Source: Leptospiraceae bacterium
GTDB taxonomy: Bacteria; Spirochaetota; Leptospiria; Leptospirales; Leptospiraceae
Direction of reading: 5' to 3'
Assembly: GCA_024233865.1 (NCBI GenBank)
Contig: JACKPA010000012.1
Coordinates: forward strand, 64,001 to 128,000
Length of the DNA: 64,000 bases
The notes under the pieces are model-generated. The model did not search any database and was not told the origin of the DNA. It was given only the letters and a program-made list of their open reading frames with translations. This document shows positions 6,603 to 43,254 of this stretch, piece after piece. The position numbers and the translations under genes were made by a program. Each line of letters begins with the position of its first letter. The stretch's first letter is position 1.

Positions 6603-7147
6603 AATTCTTTTTCACAACATCTTTCGCTACAACATTATTGATCATAAGTCTTATTGCTCTTTTTATATCAAACTGTTTCACCACAGAAATTATTGACGAA
6701 AACAAACCACAACAGATTAAAAAATCAGGTGGAGAAGACTGGTACAAATCTTATTTATTAGGTTTTATTGATTCAGAAGAAAAGATGGGCACAATTGCCA
6801 ACTGCCCTACCGGTGTTAGTCGGGTTGTATTAAAAAAAAGTGCTTCTAATACTTTTGCTGAGCTTGGTCTTCAGTGTATAAGCTACATCGTATCTCCTAT
6901 TGCACTAACATTCCGAACAAACGAAATTTACTGCGTTACTCCACAAAAAACCACAAAAGTAAAATCCAAAAAAGAAGAAGAAATGATTCAAAAAGGCTTT
7001 ACGGATACCGTAATTTTAAAAAATGGAACGACGTTTAAAAATGTAAAATCCATTAAAACGGAGGACTCTGTTATTGTCCAATCTCAAATAGGTCAAACTC
7101 TTACCTTTAAACTAGCTGAGGTATTTGATATTCAAAGCTCGGAATAA
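6599..7147 (+). CDS. Lipoprotein (hypothetical)
   Basis: Signal plus lipobox-like LFISNC. Start overlaps the previous stop by 4 bp (ATGA). Confidence 0.4.
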   Translation: MKFFFTTSFATTLLIISLIALFISNCFTTEIIDENKPQQIKKSGGEDWYKSYLLGFIDSEEKMGTIANCPTGVSRVVLKKSASNTFAELGLQCISYIVSPIALTFRTNEIYCVTPQKTTKVKSKKEEEMIQKGFTDTVILKNGTTFKNVKSIKTEDSVIVQSQIGQTLTFKLAEVFDIQSSE

Positions 7148-9262: not shown

Positions 9263-10639
9263 CTAAAAAACAAAATAGATAAATGGTTTTGTATCTCCAC
9301 TTAGCAATACAGCAACCATGATTACAATTGCAAAAAGCAGTCCGTTGTACCAAGTAAATCTTTTTCCTAAAACCTTTTCTATAGAATCGCCATAGCACCA
9401 ACCCAATAAATGGGCAATAACCATAAAAAAGATCACATAAAAAAGCCTCATACTCAAAAAATAATTACAATCTACTCCCACTCTCCTATCAAACAAGCCA
9501 GAAAAAAGGGAATAGGCTACTTGAAAATTTTCAGCTCGGAAAAATACCCACAAAAGGCAAACCATACACACCACAAATACAGCATACAAAACACGAAACA
9601 ATTTTGACAAAATAAGCAGTATGGTTCGACTCCGCTCACCAACCAAGTTAAGGAAGCAGTTATGGACATTGAGCGTAGTCGAAATGTTCATAAAAGATCG
9701 CTCTATTGTCAAAAACAAGCCATGCATTCCACCCCAAAAAATAAATGTCCAATTTGCTCCATGCCACAAACCACCTAATAACATCGTAAAAAGCAAATTT
9801 CGATAAGTTCTAAATTCTCCTCTGTGGTTTCCACCTAAAGATATATACAAGTATTCACGCAACCAAGAAGACAGAGAAATGTGCCACCTATTCCAAAAAT
9901 CCCTAAAACTAGTAGCCATATAAGGCAAACGAAAATTCTCCGGTAATTGAAACCCTAACAGAAAAGCAACTCCTACAGCAATATCTGAATATCCACTAAA
10001 ATCACAATAAATCTGAATGGAATAGGCAATAACACCTAACAAAACAAAACTCCAAGAGACTATGGTTGAATTTGCAAATACTATATCGGAGATAATCGCA
10101 ATATTATCAGCAATAACCGACTTTTTGATATAGCCCAACAAAATATAATAAAGAGATAATTTCAGGGGTATTTCAGATATTGTTTTGATTGGTTTAATTT
10201 TAAATTGAGGCAGTAATTCCTTTGCTTTTACAATCGGACCCGCAACCAATTGTGGGAAAAAAGATAAAAATAAAGCGTAATTTAAAAAGCTATTTTCCGG
10301 CTTGATTTCACTTCTATAAACATCAATAGTATAGCTCAAAGATTGGAACGTATAAAAAGATATACCTACAGGCAATACGGTATTTACGAGCTGATAAGAA
10401 ATACCCAAACCTATAACATTTGCAAATTGAATAAAACTACCTATGAAAAAGTTATAGTATTTAAAAACACAAAGAATCCCTAAATCAATAGAAATAGAAA
10501 TGGAAAGCAACCATTTTTGGTTAAGAGGTTTCTCGCAATAAATTTTTTTTGCGAGAAAAAAATCTGAAAGGGTAGTAAACAAAATAAGAAAAATAAATCG
10601 AACATCCCAAGCGGCATAAAACAAATAGCTGCAAATCAA
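9263..10639 (-). CDS. MBOAT-family membrane O-acyltransferase (AlgI/DltB-like)
   Basis: Polytopic protein. Conserved WHISLSSWLREYLYISLGG and WHGANW histidine motifs. Confidence 0.8.
   Translation of the reverse strand: MICSYLFYAAWDVRFIFLILFTTLSDFFLAKKIYCEKPLNQKWLLSISISIDLGILCVFKYYNFFIGSFIQFANVIGLGISYQLVNTVLPVGISFYTFQSLSYTIDVYRSEIKPENSFLNYALFLSFFPQLVAGPIVKAKELLPQFKIKPIKTISEIPLKLSLYYILLGYIKKSVIADNIAIISDIVFANSTIVSWSFVLLGVIAYSIQIYCDFSGYSDIAVGVAFLLGFQLPENFRLPYMATSFRDFWNRWHISLSSWLREYLYISLGGNHRGEFRTYRNLLFTMLLGGLWHGANWTFIFWGGMHGLFLTIERSFMNISTTLNVHNCFLNLVGERSRTILLILSKLFRVLYAVFVVCMVCLLWVFFRAENFQVAYSLFSGLFDRRVGVDCNYFLSMRLFYVIFFMVIAHLLGWCYGDSIEKVLGKRFTWYNGLLFAIVIMVAVLLSGDTKPFIYFVF
9621..9685. repeat. 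R1 palindromic element copy (GGTTCGACTcCGCTCACC ... TGAGCGTAGTCGAA) inside the MBOAT CDS
   Basis: Left and right arms match the intergenic copies at 30975-31028 and 41010-41092. Read in-frame as ..ISTTLNVHNCFLNLVGERSRTI.. Confidence 0.5.
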
Positions 10640-11027
10640 TAAAAAAACATTTGTTAGATTAATTTTTGTTTGTATCCAAATGCTCGTTTCTAAATAAGAA
10701 ACAAACCATCTAATAACAAAAACTAAGACAAAAAAAAAAGAAATTCCGGTGAAGAAAAGTTCATATCTAAATAACGATTTTTGGGCAGTTAATACTCACG
10801 TCTATACAAATTTTATTTTTCACCACATATAAAAGTCTGTTATTACAAGTAGTTTCGATATGCTAGCTTCGAAATCGCACTGCTCAACGACCGTTAAATC
10901 AAAAAACCACTTTGTGCTGAGAGTATGCTCTATCTTAAAAACTCTACTTAATGACCGTTCTATGGCATACGACAAAATGATTAAAATCAATCAAATTTTC
11001 AAAGCAACCAAATTGATTAATTTTAAT

Positions 11028-11279
11028 CTAAACAGAAAATTTACATTTAACACCGCAATGAGGGCATATACACATTACTTCTGCTTTTACAGTTCTACCC
11101 TTTGAAGTTTCAACCTTTCCAATGGCAACAAACTCAAAATCAACTCCTTCGGGAACATAATGCCCTTTCCCATATTTAGCACTTCCTTCTATAAACCCCG
11201 AACAAGCGTGGCATTTCACTTTAATTTTTAAAACATCAGCCATAACATCTCTCCTATAAGTGAACCAAAATACTGACAA
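11028..11279 (-). CDS. Small Cys-rich (CxxC...CxxC) zinc-ribbon-like protein
   Basis: CHACSG...CPHCGVKC. Probable start at internal MADVLKIK. Confidence 0.3.
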   Translation of the reverse strand: MSVFWFTYRRDVMADVLKIKVKCHACSGFIEGSAKYGKGHYVPEGVDFEFVAIGKVETSKGRTVKAEVMCICPHCGVKCKFSV

Positions 11280-11849: not shown

Positions 11850-12881
11850 TTATATTAATCTTCTTGCCCTATACTTCCATTCCCAAAGCATTATCTCATC
11901 TTCTATATTAACGGCTTGCTCCTGATATTTTTCAAGCAAAGCATAAACCATAGAAGCTACCTCTTTAGAAAACCCTTTCTCAAGTTCTTTTTCAAATTGT
12001 TCTTCATCTTGATCTATTATCATGATCGCAAGACGAAAGACTTCATCTAAGCTTTTTAACTTTTCTAATTCAATGGAAGAGCTATTTTTTTGAGCTTCAT
12101 CTTTAATCATCACAGACAAAAAGGTTCTAATAAATATAACATCTTCTGATTTTAAATTAAAGTCAAATAATAGTTGCTTTACTTTATCTAACTCCATCTT
12201 CCTCATATGAATCCTAGCAAGGAAAACCGGATTTTCCGAATACATATTTAGATTAGAATTAGAAGAAACCAATTCAGCCGCCCGAGCTTTTTCAGTATCA
12301 ATAATAGGTCTGGCATTATAATCATCATCATTTCGGTGAGCTTTGGACTCTATAACGGTTGATATTTTCTTTTTTAATATCAATATATTCAAACTAGGAT
12401 ACCTTATTTTTAAAGTAACCATATCGGTTCTTTTCAAGTTTTCATCCGCTACAATATGATGAAATTCAAGTCCTCCTTGTTCAACAGCTCCAATGATTTC
12501 TTTTACATCCTCGTAATGATAAATAACTACAGGCAAAACGTCACTTTCCGACCCGGAATTCAAAAATATAGTTTTGATGTCTCTAGAACCACCGTGCTGA
12601 TATGGAATCACTAATTTTCCCGATTTAACATTCACAAAACTAAGTTCCCCCAATCTAAAATGGGATAAATTAAAATCGTCCCCCAAAAAAACTACTCTAG
12701 GAACTGTCACTATAATCGAATTATTTTTTGCTCCTTTAGGGATTTCAGGACCTTTAGGAGTGAACACAACATAAGTCATTTTATTAAGCCTGACTTTCAC
12801 CAAATAGCCTGCCGGTGTTTTCCTCTCTTCATAAGTAGTTTGCTGTTCTTCATCAATTTCCATATTAAAACTCCAAATCAA
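11850..12881 (-). CDS. Hypothetical protein, co-transcribed with the bEBP-like regulator
   Basis: Overlaps the upstream gene by 17 bp. No recognised motif. Confidence 0.4.
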   Translation of the reverse strand: MIWSFNMEIDEEQQTTYEERKTPAGYLVKVRLNKMTYVVFTPKGPEIPKGAKNNSIIVTVPRVVFLGDDFNLSHFRLGELSFVNVKSGKLVIPYQHGGSRDIKTIFLNSGSESDVLPVVIYHYEDVKEIIGAVEQGGLEFHHIVADENLKRTDMVTLKIRYPSLNILILKKKISTVIESKAHRNDDDYNARPIIDTEKARAAELVSSNSNLNMYSENPVFLARIHMRKMELDKVKQLLFDFNLKSEDVIFIRTFLSVMIKDEAQKNSSSIELEKLKSLDEVFRLAIMIIDQDEEQFEKELEKGFSKEVASMVYALLEKYQEQAVNIEDEIMLWEWKYRARRLI

Positions 12882-14199
12882 ATTGCTTCATCTTATACTG
12901 TAATGATCCTCTTGAGATTCCCAAAGCTTTGGACATTCTCATTTGATTGCCTGCAAAAAGTTTACTGGCAAGAATAATTTTTTGTCTTTCCATATTCTCC
13001 ACACACTTTCTTAAGTTCAAATCCTCATTTGTAAGAGTTATAGGTTGTGGCTCGCAAGTAGAAGCAAGATAGTTTTCATCCAAATCAATTTCACTTCCTT
13101 TAGCTCTTACTATTGAATTTTCCAGCAGTCCCCTAAGCTCTTTTAAATTTTCGGAATAATCATGCTTAGCCAACAAATCCAAAGTCCTATTAGAAAGTTT
13201 CAGACCGGAACGACCATGCAAAAGTTTTAATTCATAAAACATCTTCCGTATTACTTCCAAGAGAACTATTTTATCCAATAAATTTAACTTTGGTAAAAAA
13301 ACAGAATTCTCATTCAAAATATCCCAAAATGGTTGATAGGTATCCACTCTACTTTCATTTCTATCAATAAAAAATAAACTACAAGCTTTTTTTTCTTTCT
13401 GTAAAAATTGATAAAACAAGTTTTGCTGTCCCACGTTAAAGGAATCCACACCGTCAAAAACAATTACTCCATGACGAATCATCTTAGTCCAATTTTCCAA
13501 AGATTTTTCCAACTTTCCAAGCTGTTCCGGTATTGAATTGATAAAAATAAAATCACCGCTATATTCAAATTTTCTGTAAATATATTTAGCCAAAGATTTT
13601 TTGCCGCTGCCATTTCCGCCACCTATCAATAAAACAGGTGGAAAAAAATCGCTATTGATTTTCTCAAAACCACTAGAAAAAGAAACCAATAATTCAATTA
13701 TTCCAAAATCGCTTTTGTCAGAAAACTCAATTGCCTTTTCTCCATCATCATTTTTGTATTTAAGAGAATATATCTGACCGACCCTATTGGCAAACATCCC
13801 TATGAATAAAGACATAATGTCTTTGCATACACCCGTAAACTCAAACAAAACAAACCCTACTACATTGCCTCTTTTAGCAATAATTCTTGAAACCAAAGCA
13901 AAATCCGAATAATTAAAATAAAGCTTAAACTCCTTTGCATAAAATATCAAAGGAAGAATTGAAGCTTCCACTTTCTCCAAATGCCCCCCCCCCCTCGATA
14001 AAAACCCATAATAAAAACCATCTTGCCCATAACCGGAAATGGCACATTCAATAAAATAATCTTTACCAACTGGTGCAAGAGCTATAGTCCCACAATTTGC
14101 TCCTACTGCATTCACAATTTGCTCAAAAACTAAAGACAATTCATTCTCTAAGCTTTCAGGAGTAAGGTTCTCATTGAACAATAAGTTATACAATATCAA
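12865..14199 (-). CDS. Degenerate sigma-54-activator-like (AAA+ central domain) regulator with C-terminal Fis-type HTH
   Basis: Walker-A-like GGGNGSGKKSLA. Central-domain remnants IVFDGVDSF..QQNLFYQFLQ, VFLPKLN.LDKIVLL and ENLKELRGLLENSI. C-terminal HTH MRMSKALGISRGSLQYKMKQF. No GAFTGA seen. The ORF contains a G11 tract. Confidence 0.55.
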   Translation of the reverse strand: MILYNLLFNENLTPESLENELSLVFEQIVNAVGANCGTIALAPVGKDYFIECAISGYGQDGFYYGFLSRGGGHLEKVEASILPLIFYAKEFKLYFNYSDFALVSRIIAKRGNVVGFVLFEFTGVCKDIMSLFIGMFANRVGQIYSLKYKNDDGEKAIEFSDKSDFGIIELLVSFSSGFEKINSDFFPPVLLIGGGNGSGKKSLAKYIYRKFEYSGDFIFINSIPEQLGKLEKSLENWTKMIRHGVIVFDGVDSFNVGQQNLFYQFLQKEKKACSLFFIDRNESRVDTYQPFWDILNENSVFLPKLNLLDKIVLLEVIRKMFYELKLLHGRSGLKLSNRTLDLLAKHDYSENLKELRGLLENSIVRAKGSEIDLDENYLASTCEPQPITLTNEDLNLRKCVENMERQKIILASKLFAGNQMRMSKALGISRGSLQYKMKQFDLEF

Positions 14200-14392
14200 C
14201 CACCAATAAAACTGCTACAACCTAGTTCAGTGTCGGACATCCGACAAAATATTCTTATAGACTAGAATATTCATCCCTTAGTAAGAATCACGCAAAAAAT
14301 ATAAAAATAAATTAAAAGTATTGATTTATTACAAGCTAAATATTTTAAACTCAAAATAGATTATTTTATAAAAAAATAACGAAATCTTTCCT

Positions 14393-15148
14393 ATGATTAT
14401 TGTATCGATAGCCAACCAAAAAGGTGGAGAGGGCAAAACAACCACTTCAATAAATCTAGCTGATGGAATAGCTAGAAGAAATAAGAGAACTTTGTTAATT
14501 GATATGGATCCACAAGCAAATTCGACCGGTATATTTTTAAATTCCGATCAAATAGAAAAATCAATGTACCATGTTTTTAATTCTTTTGCACCTGTAAAAG
14601 AAATTATCCACAAAACCAAAGTCGAAAATCTTGATATCGCTCCTTCTGAGCTAAAATTGGCCGAAATGGAAACAAGGAGTTCTAATACGGTAGAAGCTCC
14701 TTATATACTGAAAGACGCTTTGAGCAACCTAAATAATGAGTATGACATCTGCATAATCGATTGTCCTCCTAGTTTATCCATCTTTACCATCAATGCTTTG
14801 GTTGCTTCCAATTATATAATCATTCCTTTACAGGCAGAAAAGTTTTCGATTGATGGCATAATAGGACTACAAGGCACTGTTGATAATATAAAAAAGAGAA
14901 TCAATCCTCAACTACAGATTCTAGGAGCACTTATTACCCAATTAAAACCCCAGACATTATTAACAAAAACAATCGTACCAGTAATTGTAAAGTTTTTTAG
15001 GTTGTTTGATACAACAATTTCAGACGGTGTATCTGTTGGAGAAAGCAATATGGCAAGAAGTTCTGTTTACACCTATAATAAAAAAAGCAAACAAGCGCAG
15101 GAATATGAAAACTTTACAGAGGAAGTTTTAAATGAGCTCGAAAAGTAA
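14393..15148 (+). CDS. parA: ParA/Soj partition ATPase
   Basis: Deviant Walker A NQKGGEGKTTTS; 251 aa. Overlaps parB by 17 bp. Confidence 0.9.
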   Translation: MIIVSIANQKGGEGKTTTSINLADGIARRNKRTLLIDMDPQANSTGIFLNSDQIEKSMYHVFNSFAPVKEIIHKTKVENLDIAPSELKLAEMETRSSNTVEAPYILKDALSNLNNEYDICIIDCPPSLSIFTINALVASNYIIIPLQAEKFSIDGIIGLQGTVDNIKKRINPQLQILGALITQLKPQTLLTKTIVPVIVKFFRLFDTTISDGVSVGESNMARSSVYTYNKKSKQAQEYENFTEEVLNELEK

Positions 15149-15980
15149 AAGATTAGGGACTCTTGTTGATATATTTCAAGCAGAAACATTAGAAGGCTCT
15201 ATAAAAAAAATTAAAATAGACTCAATACAACCCTCTGATACTCAACCTAGAATAGATAGAAGGAAAGCAGTCGATGAATTAGCAGAAAGTCTAAAACAAA
15301 ATGGACTTCTGCAACCAATTCTAATAACAAAAAGAGATGGTGAAAGTAATTACAGAATTATAGCAGGAGAGAGAAGATATCATGCTGCCAAATCATTAGG
15401 GTGGACAGAATTAGAATGTAAAATATTAAATAAAACAGAAAAAGAAACCTACAAACTAGCCATTATAGAGAACTTACAAAGAGAAAACCTTACTCCCTAT
15501 GAAGAAACAGAAGCCATTGCATTTTTAAAAAGCAACTACCATTATACAGATCTGGAATTAGCAGAAATCTTCGGAAAAAGCCGAAGTTATATGACTGAAA
15601 TATTAAGCATCTCCACACTAAATAAAGATGAGATGCAAATTTGCAAAGAAAACGGTATAGGTACAAAAAACCTTCTTGTTCAGGCTGCACAAGCCTCTAA
15701 AAAAGGAGATTTCACTGAATTCATAGAGCAAATAAAAAATAAAGAAATCAAAACAGTTAAAGACGCAAAAAAATTTAATAAAAAGATAACCATTGAAAGC
15801 GATAACACTTTAAACGATGCTATCCCCCTCAATACCCCCAATGAAAACCACCAAGAAACCAAAAGTAATTATACAATAACAAAAGATTCCAATCAAATAA
15901 TTATACAAGTCAGCAATCATGAGCTTATCAATAAAATCTATGAGTTTATAAGCCAAGAATTAGCAAATCTTCAGCTATAA
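15132..15980 (+). CDS. parB: ParB/Spo0J partition protein
   Basis: ParB box IIAGERRYHAAKSLGW. The N-terminal ParB/Srx fold is followed by a divergent C-terminus. Confidence 0.85.
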   Translation: MSSKSKRLGTLVDIFQAETLEGSIKKIKIDSIQPSDTQPRIDRRKAVDELAESLKQNGLLQPILITKRDGESNYRIIAGERRYHAAKSLGWTELECKILNKTEKETYKLAIIENLQRENLTPYEETEAIAFLKSNYHYTDLELAEIFGKSRSYMTEILSISTLNKDEMQICKENGIGTKNLLVQAAQASKKGDFTEFIEQIKNKEIKTVKDAKKFNKKITIESDNTLNDAIPLNTPNENHQETKSNYTITKDSNQIIIQVSNHELINKIYEFISQELANLQL

Positions 15981-16115
15981 ATATACTATGATTAGATTCA
16001 CTTGATTTTAAAGGATTTTCTGCATTTCATATCTACAAACCAATCCGCGTTGTGTATAGTATCGCTCATTAGTTTATTCCAAATCACCTTAATCAAAATC
16101 GAAGGAATATTCATT

Positions 16116-16192
16116 CCTGTTGATTAAATTTAATCAACAGGAAATCGATCTTAAAGCACGTGTAATATGATTAAATTTAATCATATTACACG
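16116..16192. promoter_or_regulatory. Two perfect palindromes (26 bp and 34 bp) sharing core TGATTAAATTTAATCA; candidate centromere (parS-like) or iteron/operator
   Basis: Palindrome 1 is CCTGTTGATTAAATTTAATCAACAGG at 16116-16141. Palindrome 2 is CGTGTAATATGATTAAATTTAATCATATTACACG at 16159-16192. Both lie in the 660-bp gap between parB and the Rep-like gene. Confidence 0.5.
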
Positions 16193-16500
16193 CTACATTA
16201 TTTGCGAAAATTATTCGCTGTGATCCATACATCTTCTGTGTTATTAGAGAAAAAAATTCGCATATTCTTGACAGAAACTACCATGGCGAAATAATGAGAC
16301 ATAAGTTATGATATGTCTAGTAAACTTTTACTAAGGGGATTTATGAATAATGAGGCTTTTGTTTCCTTTTTATCAAAAAGATGATTCTTTCACTCGAAAC
16401 ATGATTATAGAAAATTTATATACAGAATCAAGATTATGAACAGCAAAACAATTTTTTATTTCAAATGGAACAAAAAAAATTCGCATAAAACAAAAAAAGT

Positions 16501-16522
16501 CTCCTGGGTGAAAACCCAGGAG
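16501..16522 (-). terminator. Intrinsic-terminator-like hairpin, minus-strand orientation
   Basis: CTCCTGGGT-GAAA-ACCCAGGAG: 9-bp GC-rich stem with a GNRA loop. On the minus strand it is followed by AC plus a T7 run. No annotated minus-strand gene lies upstream. Confidence 0.4.
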
Positions 16523-16550
16523 TCGGAATCTCCCGAGGGAATGTTGTTGG

Positions 16551-17609
16551 ATGAGACATAAATTAACTTATAATCGAAGGGTGTCAATAATTTTTGATTA
16601 TATTTTGCTTAATATTAGTTTTTTTTTATCAAAAGGAGAAGGTATGAGCGAGAATTTTCAGTATTTTAAGTTCATGACTGATATTATAGACTCTGGGACT
16701 TGGGCAAAGCTGTCTTCCGCTGCCAAAAGCTTGTATCCTGTGTTGCTAAAATTTAGTGACCAGACTTTCAAGTATGTATGGCCTAGCACGGAAACCTTGA
16801 TGAGGCTGACCGGCTTCAAAACTAAAAAGTCTGTCATCTTGGCAAAAAAAGAACTTATGAACGTAGGACTTATCCGCACAGTCTCAGGTTCTGGGAGAAC
16901 TAATTCCAGATACTATTTTTCTTTTAATTACGAGGGTTCCAAAATTACACCTCTGGGGGATAAAGAAATATACCGATCAGGTGTATTGAAATCAACCGCA
17001 GAGGCATGTCCGGCTACATCTTTAGGGGATAGCTCAGCAAACCCAAACAATATTAATATAACTATAACCAATAATCCAGGTCAAAAAGCAAAAAATTCGA
17101 GTAATAAAACCAAAAATACTGACAACTATTTTAAAAACAATTTTTCTGAAGATGTATTATCTTATGAATCTTTGCTAGATATTTATGGAATTGAAATATT
17201 AAACTACGCTTATTCCATAGCTCAAAAGAGAAATCTGGAAAATGATATTTCTCACATAAAAGATATCTGCAAAGCTCGTGTTAAAGAAATTAGCTCTACA
17301 CTTGTGGGAGCAAAGCAAACACCAAACAATAACCTCGAAATATCGAGTATATGGTCTAATTTTATTAGATGGACAGAGATTCACTTGACTTCAACATCGA
17401 TTGAAATGATAAAAAATGCAAATATTCTCATTGAAGGACGAACAATTATTGTTCAAGGGGAGTTGAATAAATATTTGCAGCAAGTTATTGTGAAATATTT
17501 TTCTGAAAAAGTTACTCCTAAAATATTTATTTCTTTTAGTAATAATGAAAAGATAAATGGTAAAGCTTTAAATGGTATCGAATTTTCAAAAAACGGACAT
17601 TTTGATTGA
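16551..17609 (+). CDS. Winged-HTH replication-initiator-like / regulatory protein
   Basis: Probable true start at 16644 (ATG preceded by AAAGGAGAAGG). The N-terminal wHTH resembles plasmid/phage Rep N-domains (..SAAKSLYPVLLKFSD..WPSTETLMRLTGFKTKKSVILAKKELMNVGLIRT), followed by a low-complexity linker. Confidence 0.45.
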   Translation: MRHKLTYNRRVSIIFDYILLNISFFLSKGEGMSENFQYFKFMTDIIDSGTWAKLSSAAKSLYPVLLKFSDQTFKYVWPSTETLMRLTGFKTKKSVILAKKELMNVGLIRTVSGSGRTNSRYYFSFNYEGSKITPLGDKEIYRSGVLKSTAEACPATSLGDSSANPNNINITITNNPGQKAKNSSNKTKNTDNYFKNNFSEDVLSYESLLDIYGIEILNYAYSIAQKRNLENDISHIKDICKARVKEISSTLVGAKQTPNNNLEISSIWSNFIRWTEIHLTSTSIEMIKNANILIEGRTIIVQGELNKYLQQVIVKYFSEKVTPKIFISFSNNEKINGKALNGIEFSKNGHFD

Positions 17610-17760
17610 TTTTAATCAAAAGTTAAATTCAGATTTTGATATATTATTCAAAAAATAACTTATAAATTTAATTGTAAATTGAATGATAAATCCATTATTG
17701 TAATATTTATAAAGGGTAAAACACAAAAAGATTCAAGAAAATCATTAAAAAGAGAGTACA

Positions 17761-20277
17761 ATGATAAAGAAGAATATTAGAATTAGCCATCCAGCAGATA
17801 TATTAATCAAACAAGTTGAGACAAAAGGAAAATATGATTTAGAAAATGGTAGTCTCAATCATTTTAGTTACGAATCTGCTTCTATCGAGATTTCAGCTAT
17901 TGCATTACAACTACAAGAAGATTCGGCTTTTAATTTAGTTCAATTTGAATTTATTGAAGGCGAAAAAGAGTTTTTACCGGAAATTTTTAGATTTGAGATT
18001 TCAAGAGACGGATTAGTTTGGGAACCTATTATTCAAGAGTATAAATACTCTAGTTTAAACAAAAATTTCTGCAAATGGAACTTTTCGTTGGTTCAAACAA
18101 ATTTTTTTAAATTGGTAATCAAACCAACAAGGAGAACCCAGAAGGGAGATTATAAAGTTTCATTCAAAAACTTCAAATTAAAAATATCCGGTATTGAGAA
18201 AATTATAGCCAGTTCTGAAAATGATAGGTATTGGGTAAAAGAAAACCTTGTTGATGGCAGAAAAGATTATGGTTGGTCTTCTAAAGAAAAGAAACAATCT
18301 AGTGAAGAGTTTGTTTTATTTGATTTGGGTTCTATTAATAAAATTGAGGAATTTCGCCTTTTAACTAAAAACGAATCCGAAACGAATTTTCCTGAAAATT
18401 TCGTTGTTTATTATAGCGAAGATGATTTGTCTTGGTTTCAATTGCTAGATGAACCTCACTTTCTCTCTGAGCCTGCAACTTGGTACTCATGGAAGTTTTT
18501 ACCTATAAATATGAGGTTTATGAAAATTGTATGTTTATGCGAAAATTTAAATTCCCAAGGTTTGTATGTAAGCCAGTTTGTTGAAGTTGAGATATATGCT
18601 TCTACTGATGAAATTAGTTTTTCTGGGAAAATTAATAGTTTGGATCCCCCCCCCTACTCTTCTATAATTAGGTCTGGTTTGGTTCGCCTTGCCGGTAATG
18701 GTGAATCAAGAGAAGGAGTTGTCGTCCAGGGTAATGATAGAAGACTAATGGATGCTACAATTGAGTTTAAAGGAATTGTAGAATTAGCCAGCGATGGCGA
18801 AGATAGAGAAGGAGTTGTCGTCCAGGGTAATGATAGAAGGTTAAAAATTGCTACTGAAAATAATTATGGTTTGGCAAAATTAGCTAAAAATAGAGAATGT
18901 AGAACGGGGATTGTTGTTCAAAGTGATGATGATAGACTAAGAACCGCAACTACGGAATATTCTGGGATTGTGGAATTGGCTGAGGACGGGGAAACTAGAC
19001 CTGGAACTGTTGTTCAAGGTAACGATAGCCGTTTGAAAAAAGCAACTACAAAAGATTACGGGTTAACTGTAATGGCTGAATTAGGTTCTGATTTACCTGG
19101 AAGAGTTATTACCGCTGATGATCCAAGAATTAAAAAAGCTACCACCACAAAAGAAGGAATTTTAAGATTTGCTCACAATGGCGAAAGTGAAGGATTATGT
19201 GCTGTTCAAGGCAGTGATAAAAGGTTAAAAGAAGCAACTACCGAAAGTTTTGGAATTGTGAAACTAGCTCACTCCGGAGAAGGAAATGAAGGAAAGGTCA
19301 TTCAAGGCAATGATAAAAGGTTAAAGGAAGCCACTGAAACTGAACCCGGCATTGTATCATTTGCCAAACATGATTCTAATGTAGCCAACAAAGCAGTACA
19401 AGCAAACGATCCAAGACTATATGATTCTAGAGAAGCGAAACCGCATACGCATGATTATGCTCCAAAAGTTCATGACTATAATTCTCATACCGGACTGATT
19501 CGCCTAAAAGGAGAAGTTCAGTCTCAGTTTAAACATATCGTTGTTCCACCTCAGAATCATGGAGTGATATACGGGAAAAATGAAGCAACATCGGGAGCTG
19601 GAATTGTTGGAGTAGGTGAAGATGAAGGGGTTTTAGGTTATTCTAATGATTATGGAGTTGTTGGCTATTCAGGAAGTTCAAAAGAAGATTCGGCTGGTAT
19701 ATGTGGGTTTGCTAAAAAAGGATTCGGAGGGGAATTTACTTCCCAGTCTTCTTATGCTTTATGCGCTAATGGTAAGGGAGTAAAGAAAAAAGATATATCC
19801 GGTTCCGGAAAAGCTGTATTGGCATTGGGAAACTCTGAATTTCATGGAATGATTAAAATTGAAGATGACAATGCTTCTCATTGTATTGCTGCATGTTTTA
19901 CTTTGCTTCAGAATGAAATTATCTCGGAAGGAGACATTATCGTTATTGGCGAAAAAGATGGTAAAATAGCAAAATCAAAAACAGCGTATTCTACTAGAGT
20001 TATTGGAGTTGCAGTTTCTTCAATGTCGATACAGCTAGGACGGGATAAAACAAAATCGGAAGATGTGTTAGTTGCTCTTTATGGCATGGTAAAAATTAAT
20101 GTAGATGCTTCCGATGGTGCTATTCATTTTGGTGATTTACTTGTTTCTGGTCTAACCAGTGGTCATGCAGTAAAAGCTGATACCAATAAACTAAAGCCAG
20201 GAATGATTGTTGCAAAGGCTTTAGGTGAATGTAAGAAAGATAGATTACTTATTCCAGCTATTCTAACTATTCAATAA
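17761..20277 (+). CDS. Phage-tail-fibre-like repeat protein with two N-terminal discoidin (F5/8 type C)-like domains
   Basis: ~9 tandem ~28-aa repeats (GIVELAxDGExRxGxVVQGNDxRLKxATT) resemble the tail-fibre 'GxVxLAT-xE-xxGTD' repeat. The protein also has a Gly-rich segment and a C-terminal beta-rich domain. A C9 homopolymer in-frame at 18646-18654 encodes PPP. Confidence 0.6.
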   Translation: MIKKNIRISHPADILIKQVETKGKYDLENGSLNHFSYESASIEISAIALQLQEDSAFNLVQFEFIEGEKEFLPEIFRFEISRDGLVWEPIIQEYKYSSLNKNFCKWNFSLVQTNFFKLVIKPTRRTQKGDYKVSFKNFKLKISGIEKIIASSENDRYWVKENLVDGRKDYGWSSKEKKQSSEEFVLFDLGSINKIEEFRLLTKNESETNFPENFVVYYSEDDLSWFQLLDEPHFLSEPATWYSWKFLPINMRFMKIVCLCENLNSQGLYVSQFVEVEIYASTDEISFSGKINSLDPPPYSSIIRSGLVRLAGNGESREGVVVQGNDRRLMDATIEFKGIVELASDGEDREGVVVQGNDRRLKIATENNYGLAKLAKNRECRTGIVVQSDDDRLRTATTEYSGIVELAEDGETRPGTVVQGNDSRLKKATTKDYGLTVMAELGSDLPGRVITADDPRIKKATTTKEGILRFAHNGESEGLCAVQGSDKRLKEATTESFGIVKLAHSGEGNEGKVIQGNDKRLKEATETEPGIVSFAKHDSNVANKAVQANDPRLYDSREAKPHTHDYAPKVHDYNSHTGLIRLKGEVQSQFKHIVVPPQNHGVIYGKNEATSGAGIVGVGEDEGVLGYSNDYGVVGYSGSSKEDSAGICGFAKKGFGGEFTSQSSYALCANGKGVKKKDISGSGKAVLALGNSEFHGMIKIEDDNASHCIAACFTLLQNEIISEGDIIVIGEKDGKIAKSKTAYSTRVIGVAVSSMSIQLGRDKTKSEDVLVALYGMVKINVDASDGAIHFGDLLVSGLTSGHAVKADTNKLKPGMIVAKALGECKKDRLLIPAILTIQ
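18700..19330 (+). repeat. Coding tandem repeats (~84 bp x ~9) of the tail-fibre-like protein
   Basis: Reiterated ..GTTGTTCAAGG(T/C)AATGAT(A/G)GA.G..TAAAA.. blocks encode VVQGNDRRLK units. Confidence 0.6.
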
Positions 20278-20290
20278 GGGGAGTATTTTT

Positions 20291-21160
20291 TTGAGTAAAA
20301 TTATTGATATTTATTTAAAATCCAATAAACCGGTTTTTTCTTTTGAATTTTTTCCTCCTAAAACAGTAGAAGGTGAAGAAAAATTATTTTTAACAATAGA
20401 GAATTTAAGCCAATTAAATCCTTCTTTTGTGTCCGTTACTTATGGTGCCGGAGGGACAACTCGAACTAAAACGGTTGAGATTTCACGAAAAATTCAAGAT
20501 GATTTTAAAATTGAAACTATGTGCCATTTTACTTGTGTAGGTGTGGATAGTAATCAAATCAAAGAAACTTTAGATTCAATCCATAATTTTGGTATTAAGA
20601 ATCTTATGGCTTTGAGAGGTGATCCTCCTAAAGGTGAAGGGAAATTTACTAAAACTAAGGGAGGGTTTGAAAATGCTACGGAGCTGATTTCATTTATTAA
20701 AAGTGAAGGCTATTCTTTTTGCTTGGGTGGAGGCTGTTATCCGGAAAAGCACCCTGATGCTCCAACCCTTGAAATAGATATTCAAAACCTTAAACATAAG
20801 GTAGATGCGGGAGCTGATTTTTTGATTACTCAATTGTTTTTTAAAAATAGTGTATTTTTTGATTTCTTAGAAAATACAAAAAAAACCGGGATCAACAAAC
20901 CTATTATTCCTGGAATTATGCCTATCACAAACTTTAACCAAATAGCAAGGTTTAAAGAAATGGCAGGTTGTGAAATACCAGAATCATTAGTTACTGAATT
21001 GGAAGCCTTAAAAGACGATCCAATCGAATTTCAAAAAAAGAGTTTAGCATATACTACCGGACAGTGTAAAGAATTGTTACAAAATGGAGTTTTCGGTATT
21101 CATTTCTATACGTTAAATCAATCTCGAGCTACTTTTGAAATTATGAAAAAACTAATTTGA
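20291..21160 (+). CDS. metF: 5,10-methylenetetrahydrofolate reductase
   Basis: SVTYGAGGTTR and MALRGDPP motifs; 289 aa. Confidence 0.85.
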   Translation: MSKIIDIYLKSNKPVFSFEFFPPKTVEGEEKLFLTIENLSQLNPSFVSVTYGAGGTTRTKTVEISRKIQDDFKIETMCHFTCVGVDSNQIKETLDSIHNFGIKNLMALRGDPPKGEGKFTKTKGGFENATELISFIKSEGYSFCLGGGCYPEKHPDAPTLEIDIQNLKHKVDAGADFLITQLFFKNSVFFDFLENTKKTGINKPIIPGIMPITNFNQIARFKEMAGCEIPESLVTELEALKDDPIEFQKKSLAYTTGQCKELLQNGVFGIHFYTLNQSRATFEIMKKLI

Positions 21161-21169: not shown

Positions 21170-21790
21170 ATGTTGTATATAAAATTTGTTGTTATGGTTG
21201 TTTTGGCAAGTATGATTTTACTTTGTTCACAAACCAAACCTCAAGTTCAGGATGAACCAATGCCGAAGCATCCTCAACCGGAAATAAAAAAAGAGAACAA
21301 TAAAATAGAGATAAAGCCGGAAACTCCAAATAGAAGTCTAAACAGAACATCTGTCTGGAATTACGAAGGATGGGGAAATAATCCTGAAGATTATTTAAAA
21401 GGAGAGGATATGTTTTCTGTTGAATCGGGAGACTATTACTATAAAAAAGTTATTGGCTCAGCATCTCATAGAGCCATTGAATTAAACTCTCCTTCTTATA
21501 TGCAATCAACTTGTAAAATAAATGCTGGTAAGCAAAACCATAATTCTATTTTAGAATCTATGTACAATTCTGTTCTTGTAGATCGGATAAATGAGAAAAA
21601 AAATGAGAATATTAAGCAATTAGTCGAATTATCAAGTGATATACGAGTGGAACCTTTGTTGTGTAGAGCAATTGGAAAGGGAGCAACCTTTACACAATGT
21701 GAATGTGTAGTTTACATTCAATATAAGGGTGGAAAAGAAGAGGCATACAAAGACATTCAAAGGAGATTGGAAGTTGGTGTAGATGAATGA
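21170..21790 (+). CDS. Secreted/lipoprotein hypothetical; first gene of the helicase cluster
   Basis: Signal peptide (MVVLASMILLCSQ). Stop overlaps the next start by 4 bp (ATGA). Confidence 0.4.
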   Translation: MLYIKFVVMVVLASMILLCSQTKPQVQDEPMPKHPQPEIKKENNKIEIKPETPNRSLNRTSVWNYEGWGNNPEDYLKGEDMFSVESGDYYYKKVIGSASHRAIELNSPSYMQSTCKINAGKQNHNSILESMYNSVLVDRINEKKNENIKQLVELSSDIRVEPLLCRAIGKGATFTQCECVVYIQYKGGKEEAYKDIQRRLEVGVDE

Positions 21791-24237
21791 ATAAGTCAAG
21801 TTTATTGGAAACTTTTATCCAAGAAAAATTCTCAAGGGAATTGCTTTCGCACAAGAAAATTGCTTCTTCTGAAGGAAGTTTTTCCCCCCTACCCTATTCT
21901 TTGAACCCTATTTTACAAAAAACTCTAATAGAATCCGGCTACAGTCAACTGTACTCTCATCAATTGGCTGCTTTTGATTCTATCTCTCAAAAAAAAAATG
22001 TGGTATTAGTAACCAATACGGCAAGTGGAAAGACTCTATCTTTTTTATTGCCTTTGCTTAATGATTATTCCAATGCAAAAACACCATTTACGTCTATTCT
22101 TATGTACCCTACAAAAGCGTTATCAAGAGATCAAGAAAATACCCTAAGAAAATTGGTTGAAAGTGTATGCGAACAAAACAAAATTGGTACTTACGACGGT
22201 GATACTCCCCAAGAAGAAAGGACTAATATATTAAAAAAAGCCGATTTTTTGATTACCAATCCGGATATGTTACATTCCGGAATTTTACCAAACCACAATC
22301 GAAAATGGAAAGGTTTTTTATCTAGATTACGATATGTCGTGGTGGATGAAGTTCATTCATATCGTGGAGCTTTTGGTTCTCATGTTGCCAATGTTTTTAG
22401 ACGATTGTTACGTTTATGTGAATTGCATGGCTCAAAACCGGTTTTGATTGCTTGCTCAGCTACTATCGGAAATCCGAAGGAACATGTAGAGATGTTATTC
22501 CAGAGAGAGTTTTATCTTATAGACAAAGATGGTTCTCCGAAAGCTGGAAGAAATTTATACTTTATGAATCCTCCTATGGTTAAAAATTCAATAGATACAT
22601 TACATCGGAAGGGAGCTAATTCCATAGCCATACCTATCTTAAGATTTGCAACGGAAAAGGGAATAAGGACAATTTGTTTCTGTCGTTCCAGACAAGAAGT
22701 CGAAAGGCTTTATAGAGCGACAATTGACGGACACTGGTATATCGCTGAAAAGATTAAACCGTATCGTGGAGGACTTTTACCTAATGAACGGAGGCAGCTA
22801 GAGAAGGATTTATTTTCTGGTAAAATCAATACTATTATAGCAACAAATGCTCTCGAACTTGGGATTGATATAGGAAATATGGTACTTTGTGTTTTATCCG
22901 GTTATCCAGGAACTGTATCTAGCTTTTGGCAGAGGGTTGGTAGAACTGGACGCAGTGGCGACAAATCCATTGCGGTTTATATAGCTAAAGATTCGCCCAT
23001 TGATCAGTACATAGTGAATCACCCTGAATTTGTTACTCATGCTCCTATAGAGCAAGCATGGTTGAATGCTGATAATCCTTATATTCTATTGCAACATATT
23101 CCTTGTGCTGCCTATGAATATCCGATCGAGGTAAATGATAAAACTTTTTCAAAAGAAGTCCATCGAATTGCCATTGATGTTTTAAACAAAAATAAGACTT
23201 TATCCCAGTACAACAACTATTATAGATACGCTTTAGAAGACTTTCCTTCCAAAGGAGTTAATTTGAGGGGTATGACGGACTATAATATTCAAATTTCTTG
23301 TGAAGGAGAGATTATTGGTGAAATTGACCCTATTGGGGCGATGGATACACTCTATAAAGATGCAATCTATCAGCATTTGGGAACTCGGTATATGTCTTTG
23401 GATTTGGATATGGAAAAGAAGTTATGCCAAGTGAGTAAGGTTTCCATAGACTATTATACGGAATCTGTTTGGGAATCTATGATAAACATGTTGGATTGCT
23501 TGGAATCCAAAGAAATCAATGGAAGTTTTGTTAATCTTGGATATGTACAAGTCAATCGACAGCCCAAATTGTACAAAAAAATAAAAGAAAGAACTTATGA
23601 AAATATTGGTTACGGACCAATTACTCTCAAACCGTTTTTGTATGAAACTATGGGTTTTTGTATATTTCCACCTAAAACTTGGCTGGAAGCTATGGAAAAA
23701 ACGGACATTCGATTTATTGAATCCGGTTTGTTCGGGCTAAGCTATATTCTAAAAAAAACAGCACCTATTGTGTGTATGGGAGATATAGGAGATATTCAAA
23801 CGGATGTTTCTCTAGAGGATTTTACAAAGGTAGGTTGGAAAAGTTCTTTATTTTTGTTTGATTCTCATGAGGGAGGAGTTGGTTATTCAGAGAAGGTTTA
23901 TGAAAAGCTATCGGAAACTTTAGTATTATGTGAGCAAATTATTATAGAGTGTAGTTGCGGTGTCGGATGTCCGTCTTGTGTTCCACCTCTTCTGCCAGGA
24001 ATTGAGAACAAAGAGTTGGAAAGCTTTTTAGTGGAAACAAATGTTGCAGTAGAATCAACAAGAAGTCTGCTCATTATGTTGATTTATGGTAAATTGTATA
24101 CCCCAAAAGTCAAAGTTTTGGAAACAAAGCTGAAGTCTGCTCATACTACAGAAAAAGACTTGGAAAGAGAAAAGATGGAAAAACAACTGAATCGAGCGGC
24201 AGACCTACTTTCCAAAAAAAGGGAAAAAATCCATTGA
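21787..24237 (+). CDS. MrfA/YprA-like DExH-box helicase with C-terminal DUF1998 (Zn-binding 4-Cys) domain
   Basis: Motif I TASGKT, motif II DEVH, motif III SAT, motif VI QRVGRTGR. C-terminal CSCGVGCPSC cluster. 816 aa. Confidence 0.8.
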   Translation: MNKSSLLETFIQEKFSRELLSHKKIASSEGSFSPLPYSLNPILQKTLIESGYSQLYSHQLAAFDSISQKKNVVLVTNTASGKTLSFLLPLLNDYSNAKTPFTSILMYPTKALSRDQENTLRKLVESVCEQNKIGTYDGDTPQEERTNILKKADFLITNPDMLHSGILPNHNRKWKGFLSRLRYVVVDEVHSYRGAFGSHVANVFRRLLRLCELHGSKPVLIACSATIGNPKEHVEMLFQREFYLIDKDGSPKAGRNLYFMNPPMVKNSIDTLHRKGANSIAIPILRFATEKGIRTICFCRSRQEVERLYRATIDGHWYIAEKIKPYRGGLLPNERRQLEKDLFSGKINTIIATNALELGIDIGNMVLCVLSGYPGTVSSFWQRVGRTGRSGDKSIAVYIAKDSPIDQYIVNHPEFVTHAPIEQAWLNADNPYILLQHIPCAAYEYPIEVNDKTFSKEVHRIAIDVLNKNKTLSQYNNYYRYALEDFPSKGVNLRGMTDYNIQISCEGEIIGEIDPIGAMDTLYKDAIYQHLGTRYMSLDLDMEKKLCQVSKVSIDYYTESVWESMINMLDCLESKEINGSFVNLGYVQVNRQPKLYKKIKERTYENIGYGPITLKPFLYETMGFCIFPPKTWLEAMEKTDIRFIESGLFGLSYILKKTAPIVCMGDIGDIQTDVSLEDFTKVGWKSSLFLFDSHEGGVGYSEKVYEKLSETLVLCEQIIIECSCGVGCPSCVPPLLPGIENKELESFLVETNVAVESTRSLLIMLIYGKLYTPKVKVLETKLKSAHTTEKDLEREKMEKQLNRAADLLSKKREKIH

Positions 24238-41003: not shown

Positions 41004-42152
41004 CTATGGGACATTTCGACTACGCTCAATGTCCGAATTATGCTTTCTCTTATCGTAGTCGTGCGTTCCCTGAGCGTAGTCGAAGGGAACAGCCATCACT
41101 AATTTCGCCAAAGTTTCTATAAACATCGGATAAATTCCCGATGCAGGAACTCGATAATATTCGATGATTCCATTTTTGTGGGCGATTTCTTTCAATTCTT
41201 CGCCAATTTCAAACAATGTTTCCAGATGATCACTCACAAAACTAATGGGAATAATAGCTACTCGTTTAACACCTTCGTTTCCCAGTTGTTTTAGCATGTC
41301 AATTGTATTAGGTTCTGTCCATTTTCCTTTACCTACCCTACTCTGAAATGATAAATAATCTCTCCCCATAAAGCCAGCTTTTCGCAAATTTGTCGTAATT
41401 TTAGCCCTACAATCCTCTAATTCTTGAACGTAAGTATCTCCTTTTTTGATCAACCTCATTGGTATTCCATGGGCAGAGTAAACCAAAGTGAGATTTTGCC
41501 AATCTTCAATCGGTTCTTTTCGATTCAATTGAATAAAGTTTTTTACCAATTTCCCATAAAAATAATCCAATATCAATTGAGTTGCTGCCTGTAAATAAGA
41601 TGGTTCTTTATAAAATGGTCCGATCCAACCTGGCTCTTTTCTTGGATCAGTCCCGATAATTTGTTCTATTATATTTACAACACTTAAAACGGTTGATCGA
41701 GAAAAATGAGGAAACAAAGGTAGTAAAATATTATCTTGGGAAGGAATTAACCTGGATTTTTCCATATCTCGCAAATTAGGATAACCGGCTGTCATTGCAA
41801 TATCAACAGACCAATCTTCACCTGTTTTGCTTTTTAGCAAAGTTTCGAGAGTTTTAGCTTGTTTTTCCGTTTCGGGAACAAGAGGAGAACCACCGCCAAA
41901 GCCCATTTTTAAATAACTTTTGGCAACTTCCGGAGTTCGTCTTTTGGTTATAAACTTTGCCAGCTTTAAACGAAAAAATTCCGGTAGAGGAACATCAAAA
42001 ACAAAAGGATCACTCAAAACATCCCAAAGAAACTTTTCTATTTCCGCAGGATTTCTTGGACCACCAAAGTTAATTAATAATACTCTTTTTTTCAAACTAT
42101 TATTCCGTTTTTTTTGGTTCCAGATAAAACTTTTTGATATATGCGACTTCAA
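41004..42152 (-). CDS. hemH: Ferrochelatase
   Basis: VLLINFGGP..FL.DVLSDP, GGGSPL, and C-terminal SDHLETLFEIGEEL. Confidence 0.8.
   Translation of the reverse strand: MKSHISKSFIWNQKKRNNSLKKRVLLINFGGPRNPAEIEKFLWDVLSDPFVFDVPLPEFFRLKLAKFITKRRTPEVAKSYLKMGFGGGSPLVPETEKQAKTLETLLKSKTGEDWSVDIAMTAGYPNLRDMEKSRLIPSQDNILLPLFPHFSRSTVLSVVNIIEQIIGTDPRKEPGWIGPFYKEPSYLQAATQLILDYFYGKLVKNFIQLNRKEPIEDWQNLTLVYSAHGIPMRLIKKGDTYVQELEDCRAKITTNLRKAGFMGRDYLSFQSRVGKGKWTEPNTIDMLKQLGNEGVKRVAIIPISFVSDHLETLFEIGEELKEIAHKNGIIEYYRVPASGIYPMFIETLAKLVMAVPFDYAQGTHDYDKRKHNSDIERSRNVP
41010..41092. repeat. R1 palindromic element, extended copy downstream of hemH
   Basis: TTTCGACTACGCTCAATG ... ATCGTAGTCG ... CCCTGAGCGTAGTCGAAGGGAAC. 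Confidence 0.6.
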
Positions 42153-43137: not shown

Positions 43138-43217
43138 TATATAACAAAGGATAGAAAATGGTATCTTATGTCGATTTAATATTTCAAAAAACATCAAAAC
43201 TGTTTGTATTAATAATA

Positions 43218-43238
43218 GGGGTGAAATGATTTCACCCC
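43218..43238. promoter_or_regulatory. Perfect palindrome GGGGTGAAAT-G-ATTTCACCCC 17 bp upstream of second parA start; candidate ParA/ParB operator or centromere
   Basis: 10-bp arms. Contains GTGAAA/TTTCAC half-sites reminiscent of canonical parS (TGTTTCAC-GTGAAACA) but in inverted arrangement. Confidence 0.45.
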
Positions 43239-43254
43239 TACCAAAAGGATTTAC

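Follow-up and report, generated by a model that had tools for sequence, protein, structure and literature searches.

A probable chromosome II-type replication-partition locus with a candidate antisense RNA in an uncultured Leptospiraceae lineage

Genes of the parA-parB-rep module

We analyzed a 64-kb stretch of DNA (the window), part of a 204.6-kb contig in a metagenome-assembled genome (MAG) of an uncultured Leptospiraceae lineage. It contains a partition gene pair, parA and parB, followed by a non-coding spacer and by rep, which encodes a putative replication initiator. The locus resembles the origin region of chromosome II (CII) of Leptospira, and its spacer contains a candidate antisense RNA. 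About 35 of the open reading frames (ORFs) of the window were scanned for protein families, and the locus was compared with 29 fetched Leptospiraceae-type loci by tblastn, with attention to gene position. The genes of the module are as follows:

14393..15148, plus strand: ParA, Walker-type partition ATPase, 251 aa (AAA_31 2.4e-57, CbiA)
15132..15980, plus strand: ParB (ParB_N 2e-22, HTH_ParB 4e-8)
16644..17609, plus strand: Rep, putative replication initiator, 321 aa (HTH_36, PF13730, 4.5e-9)
12865..14199, minus strand: degenerate AAA+ protein with a C-terminal Fis-type helix-turn-helix (HTH), termed Fis444, divergent to parA
11850..12881, minus strand: hypothetical gene, 343 aa, first gene of the divergent arm
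17761..20277, plus strand: discoidin (F5/8 type C) protein, 838 aa, with tail-fibre-like repeats (Pfam 2.6e-15)

Family matches in Pfam and NCBIfam support the ParA/ParB pair that a preliminary description had placed at these positions. The start of parB overlaps the end of parA. ParA contains no N-terminal HTH, and the combination of a Walker-type ATPase with a ParB containing both ParB_N and HTH domains (14393-15980) is that of a type I partition system. ParA shares 58-70% identity with the same-position ParA of related loci (69-70% with L. interrogans and L. borgpetersenii CII), indicating long vertical inheritance, and ParB shares 39-65% across the 29 loci (56% with the same two CII replicons). 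The ParB recognition helix, GKSR[SN]Y..E.LS, is kept in all lineages. The usual sequence of the ParB CTP-binding box is GERRxRA; in this region (residues 80-86, window 15369-15389) the window ParB has GERRYHA, most relatives have GERR[YF]HA, and Turneriella has GERRYRA.

The preliminary description had also reported a non-coding region of 660 bp after parB and a Rep-like gene with a winged HTH at 16551-17609. The gene and the winged HTH stand, but the start codon is ATG 16644 rather than 16551, as indicated by a 32-member alignment of the Rep family and an AAGGAG ribosome-binding site. The spacer therefore spans 15981-16643 (663 bp), in agreement with the length first given.

Rep consists of an N-terminal winged HTH (residues 1-104), a disordered linker (105-170) and a C-terminal domain (171-302), and its AlphaFold model shows two ordered domains. 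HTH_36 was the only Pfam or NCBIfam match, and a search of Protein Data Bank sequences with the Rep profile gave no meaningful match. In PHROGs, the N-terminal domain matched "replication initiation / O-like" families and the C-terminal domain another replication-initiation family (1.6e-11). Comparison by hhalign of the C-terminal 71 residues with the gene following parAB in an LE1-type leptophage gave a probability of 98.2% (E = 3.5e-14), and a Foldseek search against viral models returned HTH, replisome-organizer and initiator proteins, one of them from Leptospira phage LE3. These matches are each modest, and all point in the same direction, towards a replication initiator. The initiator call of the preliminary description is thus upheld as far as homology goes: Rep appears to be a two-domain initiator of the phage/plasmid type, with the function suggested by the relatives of its two domains.

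Alternatively, the HTH_36 protein might be a transcription factor or a partition accessory, with CII replication starting elsewhere or through another protein such as the divergent AAA+/Fis-type protein. We consider this quite improbable: both domains match replication-initiation PHROGs, the C-terminal domain has a homolog in the gene that takes the place of rep in LE1-type phages, and the tight antisense control proposed below is typical of rep genes. According to Picardeau et al. (2008, PMC2229662), vectors derived from LE1/p74 replicate autonomously by means of relatives of that gene.

Orthology with the chromosome II origin region of Leptospira

The Rep family is small, with 46 members at ≤1e-30 among 1.84 billion representatives. 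Comparison of Rep with Leptospira CII proteins, as suggested in the preliminary description, revealed full-length orthologs in the CII HTH_36 Rep family (E 1e-60 to 1e-112), including those of L. interrogans and L. borgpetersenii CII and the L. biflexa homolog LBF_4002. Identity was approximately 41-42.5% to the former two and 41% to the homolog on the Turneriella parva plasmid pTURPA.01. A tblastn search of plasmid records with Rep gave three matches, namely two L. interrogans records of 350-394 kb, which represent chromosome II, and pTURPA.01. Common to both L. interrogans records and pTURPA.01 is the gene order hypothetical protein and Fis-like protein, divergent from parA, parB, the HTH gene and the discoidin gene. 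Across the 29 loci this six-gene block is nearly invariant, being found in about 25 Leptospiraceae loci as well as on the Turneriella plasmid, and Rep is 39-47% identical over full-length matches.

The flanking members of the block follow the same pattern. The Fis-type AAA+ gene occupies the same position in nearly all loci, and is annotated as "Fis family" on the Turneriella plasmid; the window protein matches HTH_8 (9.6e-7), with AAA_lid_14 and Sigma54_activ_2 below the Pfam cut-offs. It has a Walker A motif, and a GAFTGA loop was not seen by eye. The hypothetical gene has zero Pfam or NCBIfam matches; in those Leptospira-type loci and MAGs in which the flank extends far enough, a gene with 49-69% identity occupies its position, and its Turneriella plasmid counterpart is 25% identical. 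The discoidin protein contains repeats of the GxxREGVVVQGNDRRL type and matches the PHROG "tail collar fiber" (6e-10). About 20 Leptospira-type loci have a counterpart in the corresponding position, with 48-63% identity, and that of the Turneriella plasmid is 33% identical. The discoidin gene lies always directly 3' of rep in Leptospira-type CII loci; on the Turneriella plasmid one gene intervenes.

The numbering of L. borgpetersenii JB197 chromosome 2 begins at the orthologous parA; more generally, the ortholog of the present locus in Leptospira is the parA-parB-rep at which CII numbering starts. Beyond the module, the gene order agrees with that of L. interrogans CII for more than 30 kb, including a second parAB pair and two genes that the preliminary description had named in the window, both supported by domain matches:

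20291..21160: metF (MTHFR 4e-98)
41004..42152: hemH (ferrochelatase 7e-79)

Approximately 20 kb beyond the module, L. interrogans CII contains hemH, a porin gene, parA2-parB2, and acyltransferase and cNMP-binding protein genes, which is the order of window 41004-47496. Because of the orthology of the block and this shared order, we assign the window to the CII origin-proximal region of a divergent relative. The CII origin has been described as a partition operon and a putative rep gene (Picardeau et al., 2008, PMC2229662), and a 2026 study found the copy number of L. biflexa Chr2 to be roughly equal to that of the chromosome.

GC skew was computed across the window, a check that the preliminary description had proposed for the whole replicon. 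The cumulative skew has its minimum at 15-16 kb, and on a fine scale at about 16.15-16.25 kb. Since the genes also diverge from this minimum, per-gene skew was regressed on gene orientation and on side. Both terms matter, with coefficients of 0.077 for orientation and 0.075 for side, and an orientation-corrected scan across the window placed the best switch point at 16-17 kb. Within the 64 kb read, the skew supports an origin inside the window. None of dnaA, dnaN and gyrB, which neighbor a DnaA-dependent oriC, was found among the scanned ORFs, in line with their reported absence nearby.

Taken together, the region is a replication-partition locus and very probably the origin region of a CII-type secondary replicon (chromid), a reading already offered in the preliminary description and supported by the synteny with L. 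interrogans CII and the skew switch. Its other proposal was an integrated plasmid or prophage remnant. Such a remnant, inside the main chromosome and with no present replication role, would be suggested by the plasmid- and phage-like architecture, the phage-initiator matches of the Rep domains, the tail-fibre PHROG match of the downstream gene, and the placement of some homologs on contigs above 1 Mb (P0051 and P0072). We reject it as highly improbable, because the discoidin gene with its tail-fibre-like repeats is a constant part of the conserved block in about 20 Leptospiraceae loci. The block, including this gene and metF, is fixed at the CII origin of cultured Leptospira, synteny with CII extends through over 30 kb of neighboring housekeeping genes, ParA identity is 58-70% family-wide, and the scanned ORFs revealed no sign of an integrase, att repeats or phage structural genes.

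Two observations concern the replicons on which the family occurs. On the 25,287-bp pTURPA.01 (locus L002), the whole CII-type module (Fis-like gene, parA, parB, antisense RNA, rep and discoidin gene) is accompanied by genes for methionine salvage and by glpK. This plasmid amounts to a naturally occurring chromosome II in miniature and might be used as a model of a minimal replicon. For some Rep homologs (P0051, P0072 and P0091), among them two different ones from L. kanakyensis, contigs of about 1.4 Mb are reported. These could represent fusion of CII with the main chromosome, two modules per genome, or scaffolding artefacts.

The rep gene itself contains a further conserved DNA element:

17043..17072: DNA motif CCAAACAATATTAATATAACTATAACCAAT inside the rep linker, containing palindrome ATATTAATAT, with synonymous-site conservation

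The encoded stretch PN[HN]INITI is the sole strongly conserved part of the disordered linker, and its codons are fixed at synonymous sites (AAC in 30/30, ATA in 30/30). The GC content around the module is 31-35%, and the motif is contained in an AT-rich trough of 21% GC at 17050-17200. Speculatively, the CCAAACAATATTAATATAACTATAACCAAT/ATATTAATAT stretch might be an origin element inside rep, as in RepA_N and RepC replicons.

A candidate antisense RNA opposite the rep leader

The spacer contains a distal rep promoter and, opposite the rep leader, a predicted RNA with its own promoter:

16268..16304, plus strand: distal rep promoter TTGACA-16-AATAAT, then box ATGAGACATAA (11/12 consensus positions)
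16559..16587, minus strand: antisense RNA promoter, with -35 TTGACA (reverse complement of 16582-16587) and -10 TAATTT/AATTTA at about 16559-16565
16487..16557, minus strand: candidate countertranscript RNA (ctRNA), about 65 nt, with tail GUCUCAUCCAACAACAUUCC, stem-loop 1 (SL1), terminator stem-loop 2 (SL2, 16501-16522) and U-run

One block of the spacer shows nucleotide-level conservation with L. interrogans and Turneriella, although the proteins are only about 40% identical. Its anchor, TTGTTGGATGAGAC, precedes the rep start codon by 86-118 nt in all 26 loci compared for the RNA. Read on the minus strand, the order is TTGAC, spacer, -10 box, GTCTCATCCAACAACATTCC, a small hairpin, a GC-rich hairpin whose sequence varies between lineages, and a T-run. 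The TTGAC is invariant in 25/25 aligned loci, with a spacer of 17-18 nt and a -10 consensus of TTATTAT/TAATTAT.

Folding of each sequence separately gave tail, SL1, SL2 and U-run, with a total length of 58-73 nt, in 26/26 loci. The window terminator was also predicted independently on the minus strand (16522..16501); the 5' end of the window RNA is a predicted one. A covariance model built from six sequences found exactly one minus-strand match per locus (window E = 1.5e-13). In the alignment fitted to this model, 97% of cells pair and 9/12 pairs exhibit compensatory changes, a result equaled by 0/500 shuffles, and shifting the pairing partners along the alignment collapses the pairing. An alignment with MAFFT and RNAalifold had misaligned the variable hairpins (4 pairs only), and was superseded by the per-sequence folds and the covariance-model alignment. 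G-U cells outnumber A-C cells by 17 to 4, and the minus strand is therefore the folded strand.

A search of the whole window against Rfam gave nothing at the gathering score, and the spacer gave only chance-level matches at relaxed thresholds. The LE1-type phage spacer contains neither a match to the antisense RNA model nor a minus-strand terminator. Transcription of the ortholog is documented in L. borgpetersenii JB197, where the small RNA JB_C2_N05 (minus strand 1982->1882 of chromosome 2) was expressed in all four conditions of a 2026 RNA sequencing (RNA-seq) catalogue. Its sequence begins exactly with SL1 and the terminator of the antisense unit. The catalogue lists the RNA without a function, reports homologs in 951 accessions from 359 taxa, and is silent on replication, plasmids and parB. 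Our literature search found no link between Leptospira rep and antisense control, and the supplements of Zhukova 2017, a map of L. interrogans transcription start sites, contain no matching sequence strings. The JB_C2_N05-type RNA is probably a rep countertranscript that sets copy number.

The target strand has conserved features of its own. The pattern TTGAC-N17-TAATG followed by GACATAA is present on the plus strand in 24/28 loci examined; from this conserved distal promoter, the rep mRNA leader would be 200-350 nt long and contain the antisense target. The Shine-Dalgarno (SD) sequence of rep is paired in the minimum-energy folds of 16/18 leaders, as compared with 53% of shuffled leaders. 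The partner segment of the SD lies directly 3' of the GTCAAC box, and its sequence covaries with the SD region. The most conserved leader stretch, GGAATGTTGTTGGATGAGACATAA, contains an SD-like GAAGGA and an ATG, and repeats the GACATAA box of the distal promoter.

The conserved block might therefore be taken for a plus-strand cis-regulatory leader or a protein-binding DNA site, with the minus-strand transcript incidental. The self-complementary hairpins form on both strands, the repeat of GACATAA in GGAATGTTGTTGGATGAGACATAA alongside its SD-like sequence and ATG suggests an operator, and the SD-sequestering helix is itself conserved. However, the U-run is on the minus-strand side only, the minus-strand -35 TTGAC is invariant and correctly spaced, the excess of G-U over A-C cells points to the minus strand, and a minus-strand transcript was seen by RNA-seq. 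We consider a purely plus-strand function unlikely; a regulatory leader and an antisense RNA are also not mutually exclusive, as the RNA needs the leader as its target.

The conserved ATG in the antisense target opens an ORF of 4-31 codons across the relatives. In the window, this ATG (16551) is fused in frame to rep, and a Rep isoform with a 31-residue N-terminal extension (16551-16643) is possible. In the closest relative (L030, with a Rep 59% identical to that of the window), the upstream ORF ends in an ATGA that overlaps the start codon of rep. This variation in ORF length, and the absence of the ATG from locus L024, led us not to adopt the idea of a conserved leader peptide.

Two classes of palindromes around parAB

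The module contains two classes of 16-bp palindromes:

14231..14246: class A palindrome TGTCGGACATCCGACA, parS-like, candidate centromere or operator
16114-16143 (30 nt) and 16159-16192 (34 nt): twin perfect palindromes, both containing the class B core TGATTAAATTTAATCA, at 16121 and 16168
10978-10993 and 11014-11029: two degenerate class B palindromes, upstream of the MBOAT gene
17603..17618: degenerate class B palindrome TGATTGATTTTAATCA, overlapping the rep stop codon

Class A (TGTCGGAYRTCCGACA), a family-wide motif and the more strongly conserved of the two classes, is present in one or two exact copies in the spacer between the Fis-type gene and parA in 19/29 loci. The approximately 117 kb of L. 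interrogans CII that were searched contain only two copies, both in this spacer, and the Turneriella plasmid has a third copy with one mismatch. Class A shares TGT...ACGT...ACA with what we take to be the canonical parS, TGTTTCACGTGAAACA. The tandem arrangement of class A in this spacer resembles sites for an oligomerising AAA+/HTH protein. A class A-like sequence, TGTCGGATGTCCGTCT (2 mismatches), at 23961-23976 within a helicase-like gene (21787-24237) is probably a chance match (0.28 expected at ≤3 mismatches).

The twin palindromes with their common 16-nt core were noted in the preliminary description and are as perfect as stated there. With ≤2 mismatches, TGATTAAATTTAATCA occurs 5 times in the 64 kb as against 0.34 expected, a number reached by 0/100 shuffles, and all five sites lie between 10978 and 17618. 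When generalised to TGNTTAAATTTAANCA with ≤1 mismatch, class B proved to be a family-wide motif tied to the module, with 22 matches in 22 loci (0.2 expected). In most Leptospira-type loci a single copy accompanies the class A sites, about 215 nt upstream of parA. The window and L030 have two copies after parB, those of L030 being the diverged cores TGCTTAATTTTAAGCA and TGATTATATTTAAGCA at orthologous places. Class B sites beside MBOAT are also present in L030 (397, 424) and L. interrogans CII, and L030 has a site just after the rep stop codon (6994-7009). Most loci in addition contain a class B-like motif, TGCTTAAATTTAG, 45-60 nt upstream of rep.

The function of the twin palindromes is uncertain. 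Their position between parB and the rep promoter, with arms extending perfectly for 15 and 17 bp beyond the need of a 16-bp site, would suit Rep-binding inverted repeats (an operator or origin) or transcript-end hairpins between the parAB mRNA and rep, rather than centromeres. An unrelated inverted repeat at the same place in L. interrogans and L. borgpetersenii, the TGCTTAAATTTAG motif close to rep, and the Turneriella plasmid, where class A alone was found in the 12.6 kb covered, point the same way. Neither palindrome is followed by a T-run, however, and L030 retains only the 16-bp cores and not the long perfect arms, which argues for protein binding over a hairpin function; class B sites are moreover scattered in a parS-like manner. 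We regard an operator or hairpin role as a tentative possibility, falling somewhat short of an even chance.

A role of the twin palindromes as ParB sites is likewise uncertain. The presence of class A and absence of class B in the 12.6 kb covered of the Turneriella plasmid favor class A as the centromere of the first ParB (ParB1), whereas the scatter of class B over about 7 kb around parAB is the more parS-like, and we choose neither class. Comparison of the S/N variants of the ParB helix with the class B site variants revealed no pattern. Candidate binders are ParB1, ParB2 (ParB_N only), Rep and the Fis-type protein.

Other features of the window

The second ParA/ParB pair (43255-44713) is 37% and 34% identical to the first, and its ParB contains ParB_N only. 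It is flanked by hemH-porin and DUF1569-acyltransferase genes, with no adjoining rep, and L. interrogans CII has this pair among the same neighbors. No palindrome of class A or class B occurs near the window pair. One gene lies near the degenerate class B sites:

9263..10639, minus strand: MBOAT gene

An RHS-repeat-associated core protein (3e-23) is encoded at 32773-34059 on the minus strand. Small ORFs follow it, among them one similar to a Leptospira-type lipoprotein, and together they may form a toxin/immunity cassette on the chromid. A gene for a RecC-like exonuclease V gamma subunit is present at 57007-60522, and towards the window end there is a fragment of an Eco57I/TaqI-type restriction-modification methylase (62287-63816, minus strand).

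Comparison with known systems

This kind of locus is already known in Leptospira, and the window is a new, divergent member; a parAB-rep origin of the CII type is an expected feature of Leptospiraceae. The window shares with the CII origin of L. biflexa (LEPBI_II, LBF_4001-4002), L. interrogans and L. borgpetersenii orthologous parA, parB and rep genes, the flanks (Fis-like, discoidin, metF and hem genes, second parAB) and a skew switch at the locus. It differs in belonging to a much more divergent uncultured lineage with 31-35% GC around the module, in having class B doubled into long palindromes after parB where the others have one copy upstream of parA, and in the in-frame fusion of the upstream ATG to rep. 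The published description of the CII origin includes neither the antisense RNA nor the palindrome classes, and in the literature searched we found no earlier description of these or of the fixed six-gene block.

The repABC systems of Alphaproteobacteria, also used by chromids, share the order partition ATPase, ParB-type protein and initiator, a short countertranscribed RNA in the repB-repC spacer ending at an intrinsic terminator, and 16-bp palindromic parS-like centromeres at variable positions. In contrast, the initiator here does not belong to the RepC family, as Pfam and NCBIfam gave HTH_36 alone, rep has its own distal promoter, and the phylum is a different one. As the Rfam ctRNA families were not matched, a ctRNA between a ParB-type gene and an initiator is analogous, not homologous, to that of repABC. 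The resemblance is functional and presumably convergent, and does not imply membership.

There is likewise no sequence-level membership in RepA_N/pSK41-type or pMV158 (RNAI/RNAII) systems: the resemblance of the C-terminal domain is to DnaA domain I and to the LE1 Rep, and an origin inside rep would be speculative. LE1, p74 and LE1-derived vectors share the parA-parB-rep order and homology of the C-terminal Rep domain (98%, E = 3.5e-14), whereas their N-terminal Rep domain is not detectably related and their spacer gave no antisense RNA match. In the literature covered, which includes Picardeau et al. (2008, PMC2229662), autonomous replication in L. biflexa has been demonstrated for p74, and none is reported for CII.

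Proposed mechanism

We propose that ParA and ParB segregate the replicon through 16-bp parS-like palindromes. Both palindrome classes are present and conserved, and the pairing of each protein with a class is conjectural. Class B (TGNTTAAATTTAANCA) is amplified in the window lineage into the two long palindromes after parB, with weaker copies bracketing the module. Unwinding of the DNA might start in the AT-rich spacer or in the AT-rich, nucleotide-conserved stretch within rep.

Rep would be transcribed from the conserved promoter about 350 nt upstream, and the minus-strand promoter inside its leader would constitutively produce the antisense RNA of about 65 nt, ending at the intrinsic terminator. 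The antisense elements and their covariation were observed across the loci, and transcription in L. borgpetersenii. The predicted pairing site of the RNA in the leader precedes the rep start by 86-118 nt; it includes the upstream ATG and adjoins the anti-SD segment pairing with the rep ribosome-binding site in most relatives. By the logic of repABC ctRNA, pSK41 RNAI and pMV158 RNAII, the RNA would lower Rep synthesis in proportion to copy number. Translation or mRNA stability may be reduced by blocking an activating event in the leader, by RNase III cleavage or by attenuation.

Several points weigh against this interpretation. The window is 64 kb of the 204.6-kb contig, so that a stronger skew switch may lie elsewhere, and the contig is a putative separate replicon. 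Repeat searches found no iteron array in the spacer or rep, only two-copy boxes, and these sequences contain no convincing DnaA boxes or DnaA-box cluster. Initiation by the Rep family is a prediction, and for CII, even in Leptospira, the assignment is based on position and GC skew. Covariation was counted on an alignment fitted to the model, which favors structure. The published boundaries of JB_C2_N05 (1982->1882) extend beyond the terminator, and do not agree with the predicted 5' end at about 2003. Locus L024 lacks the upstream ATG, the leader ORF varies between 4 and 31 codons, and the effect of the RNA on rep is purely our inference.

Weighing these points, we lean slightly towards the view that across the Leptospiraceae, pathogens included, an essential secondary chromosome kept at about one copy per chromosome has its initiator under a plasmid-style constitutive antisense RNA, convergent with repABC ctRNA, and that JB_C2_N05 is a CII copy-number and incompatibility determinant.

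Significance

For copy-number control of the second chromosome of Leptospira, which contains metF, asd and hem genes, we found no molecular study of an initiator or a centromere in the searched literature. Across about 30 relatives, the locus supplies a candidate initiator, a candidate antisense regulator with an ortholog detected by RNA-seq, and two candidate centromere motifs, and its minimal conserved block is also present on the 25-kb Turneriella plasmid as a natural "mini-CII". If the proposed control is true, the antisense RNA would explain CII incompatibility and be useful to build or destabilise Leptospira vectors, and CII would represent an independent second example of a chromid under ctRNA control.

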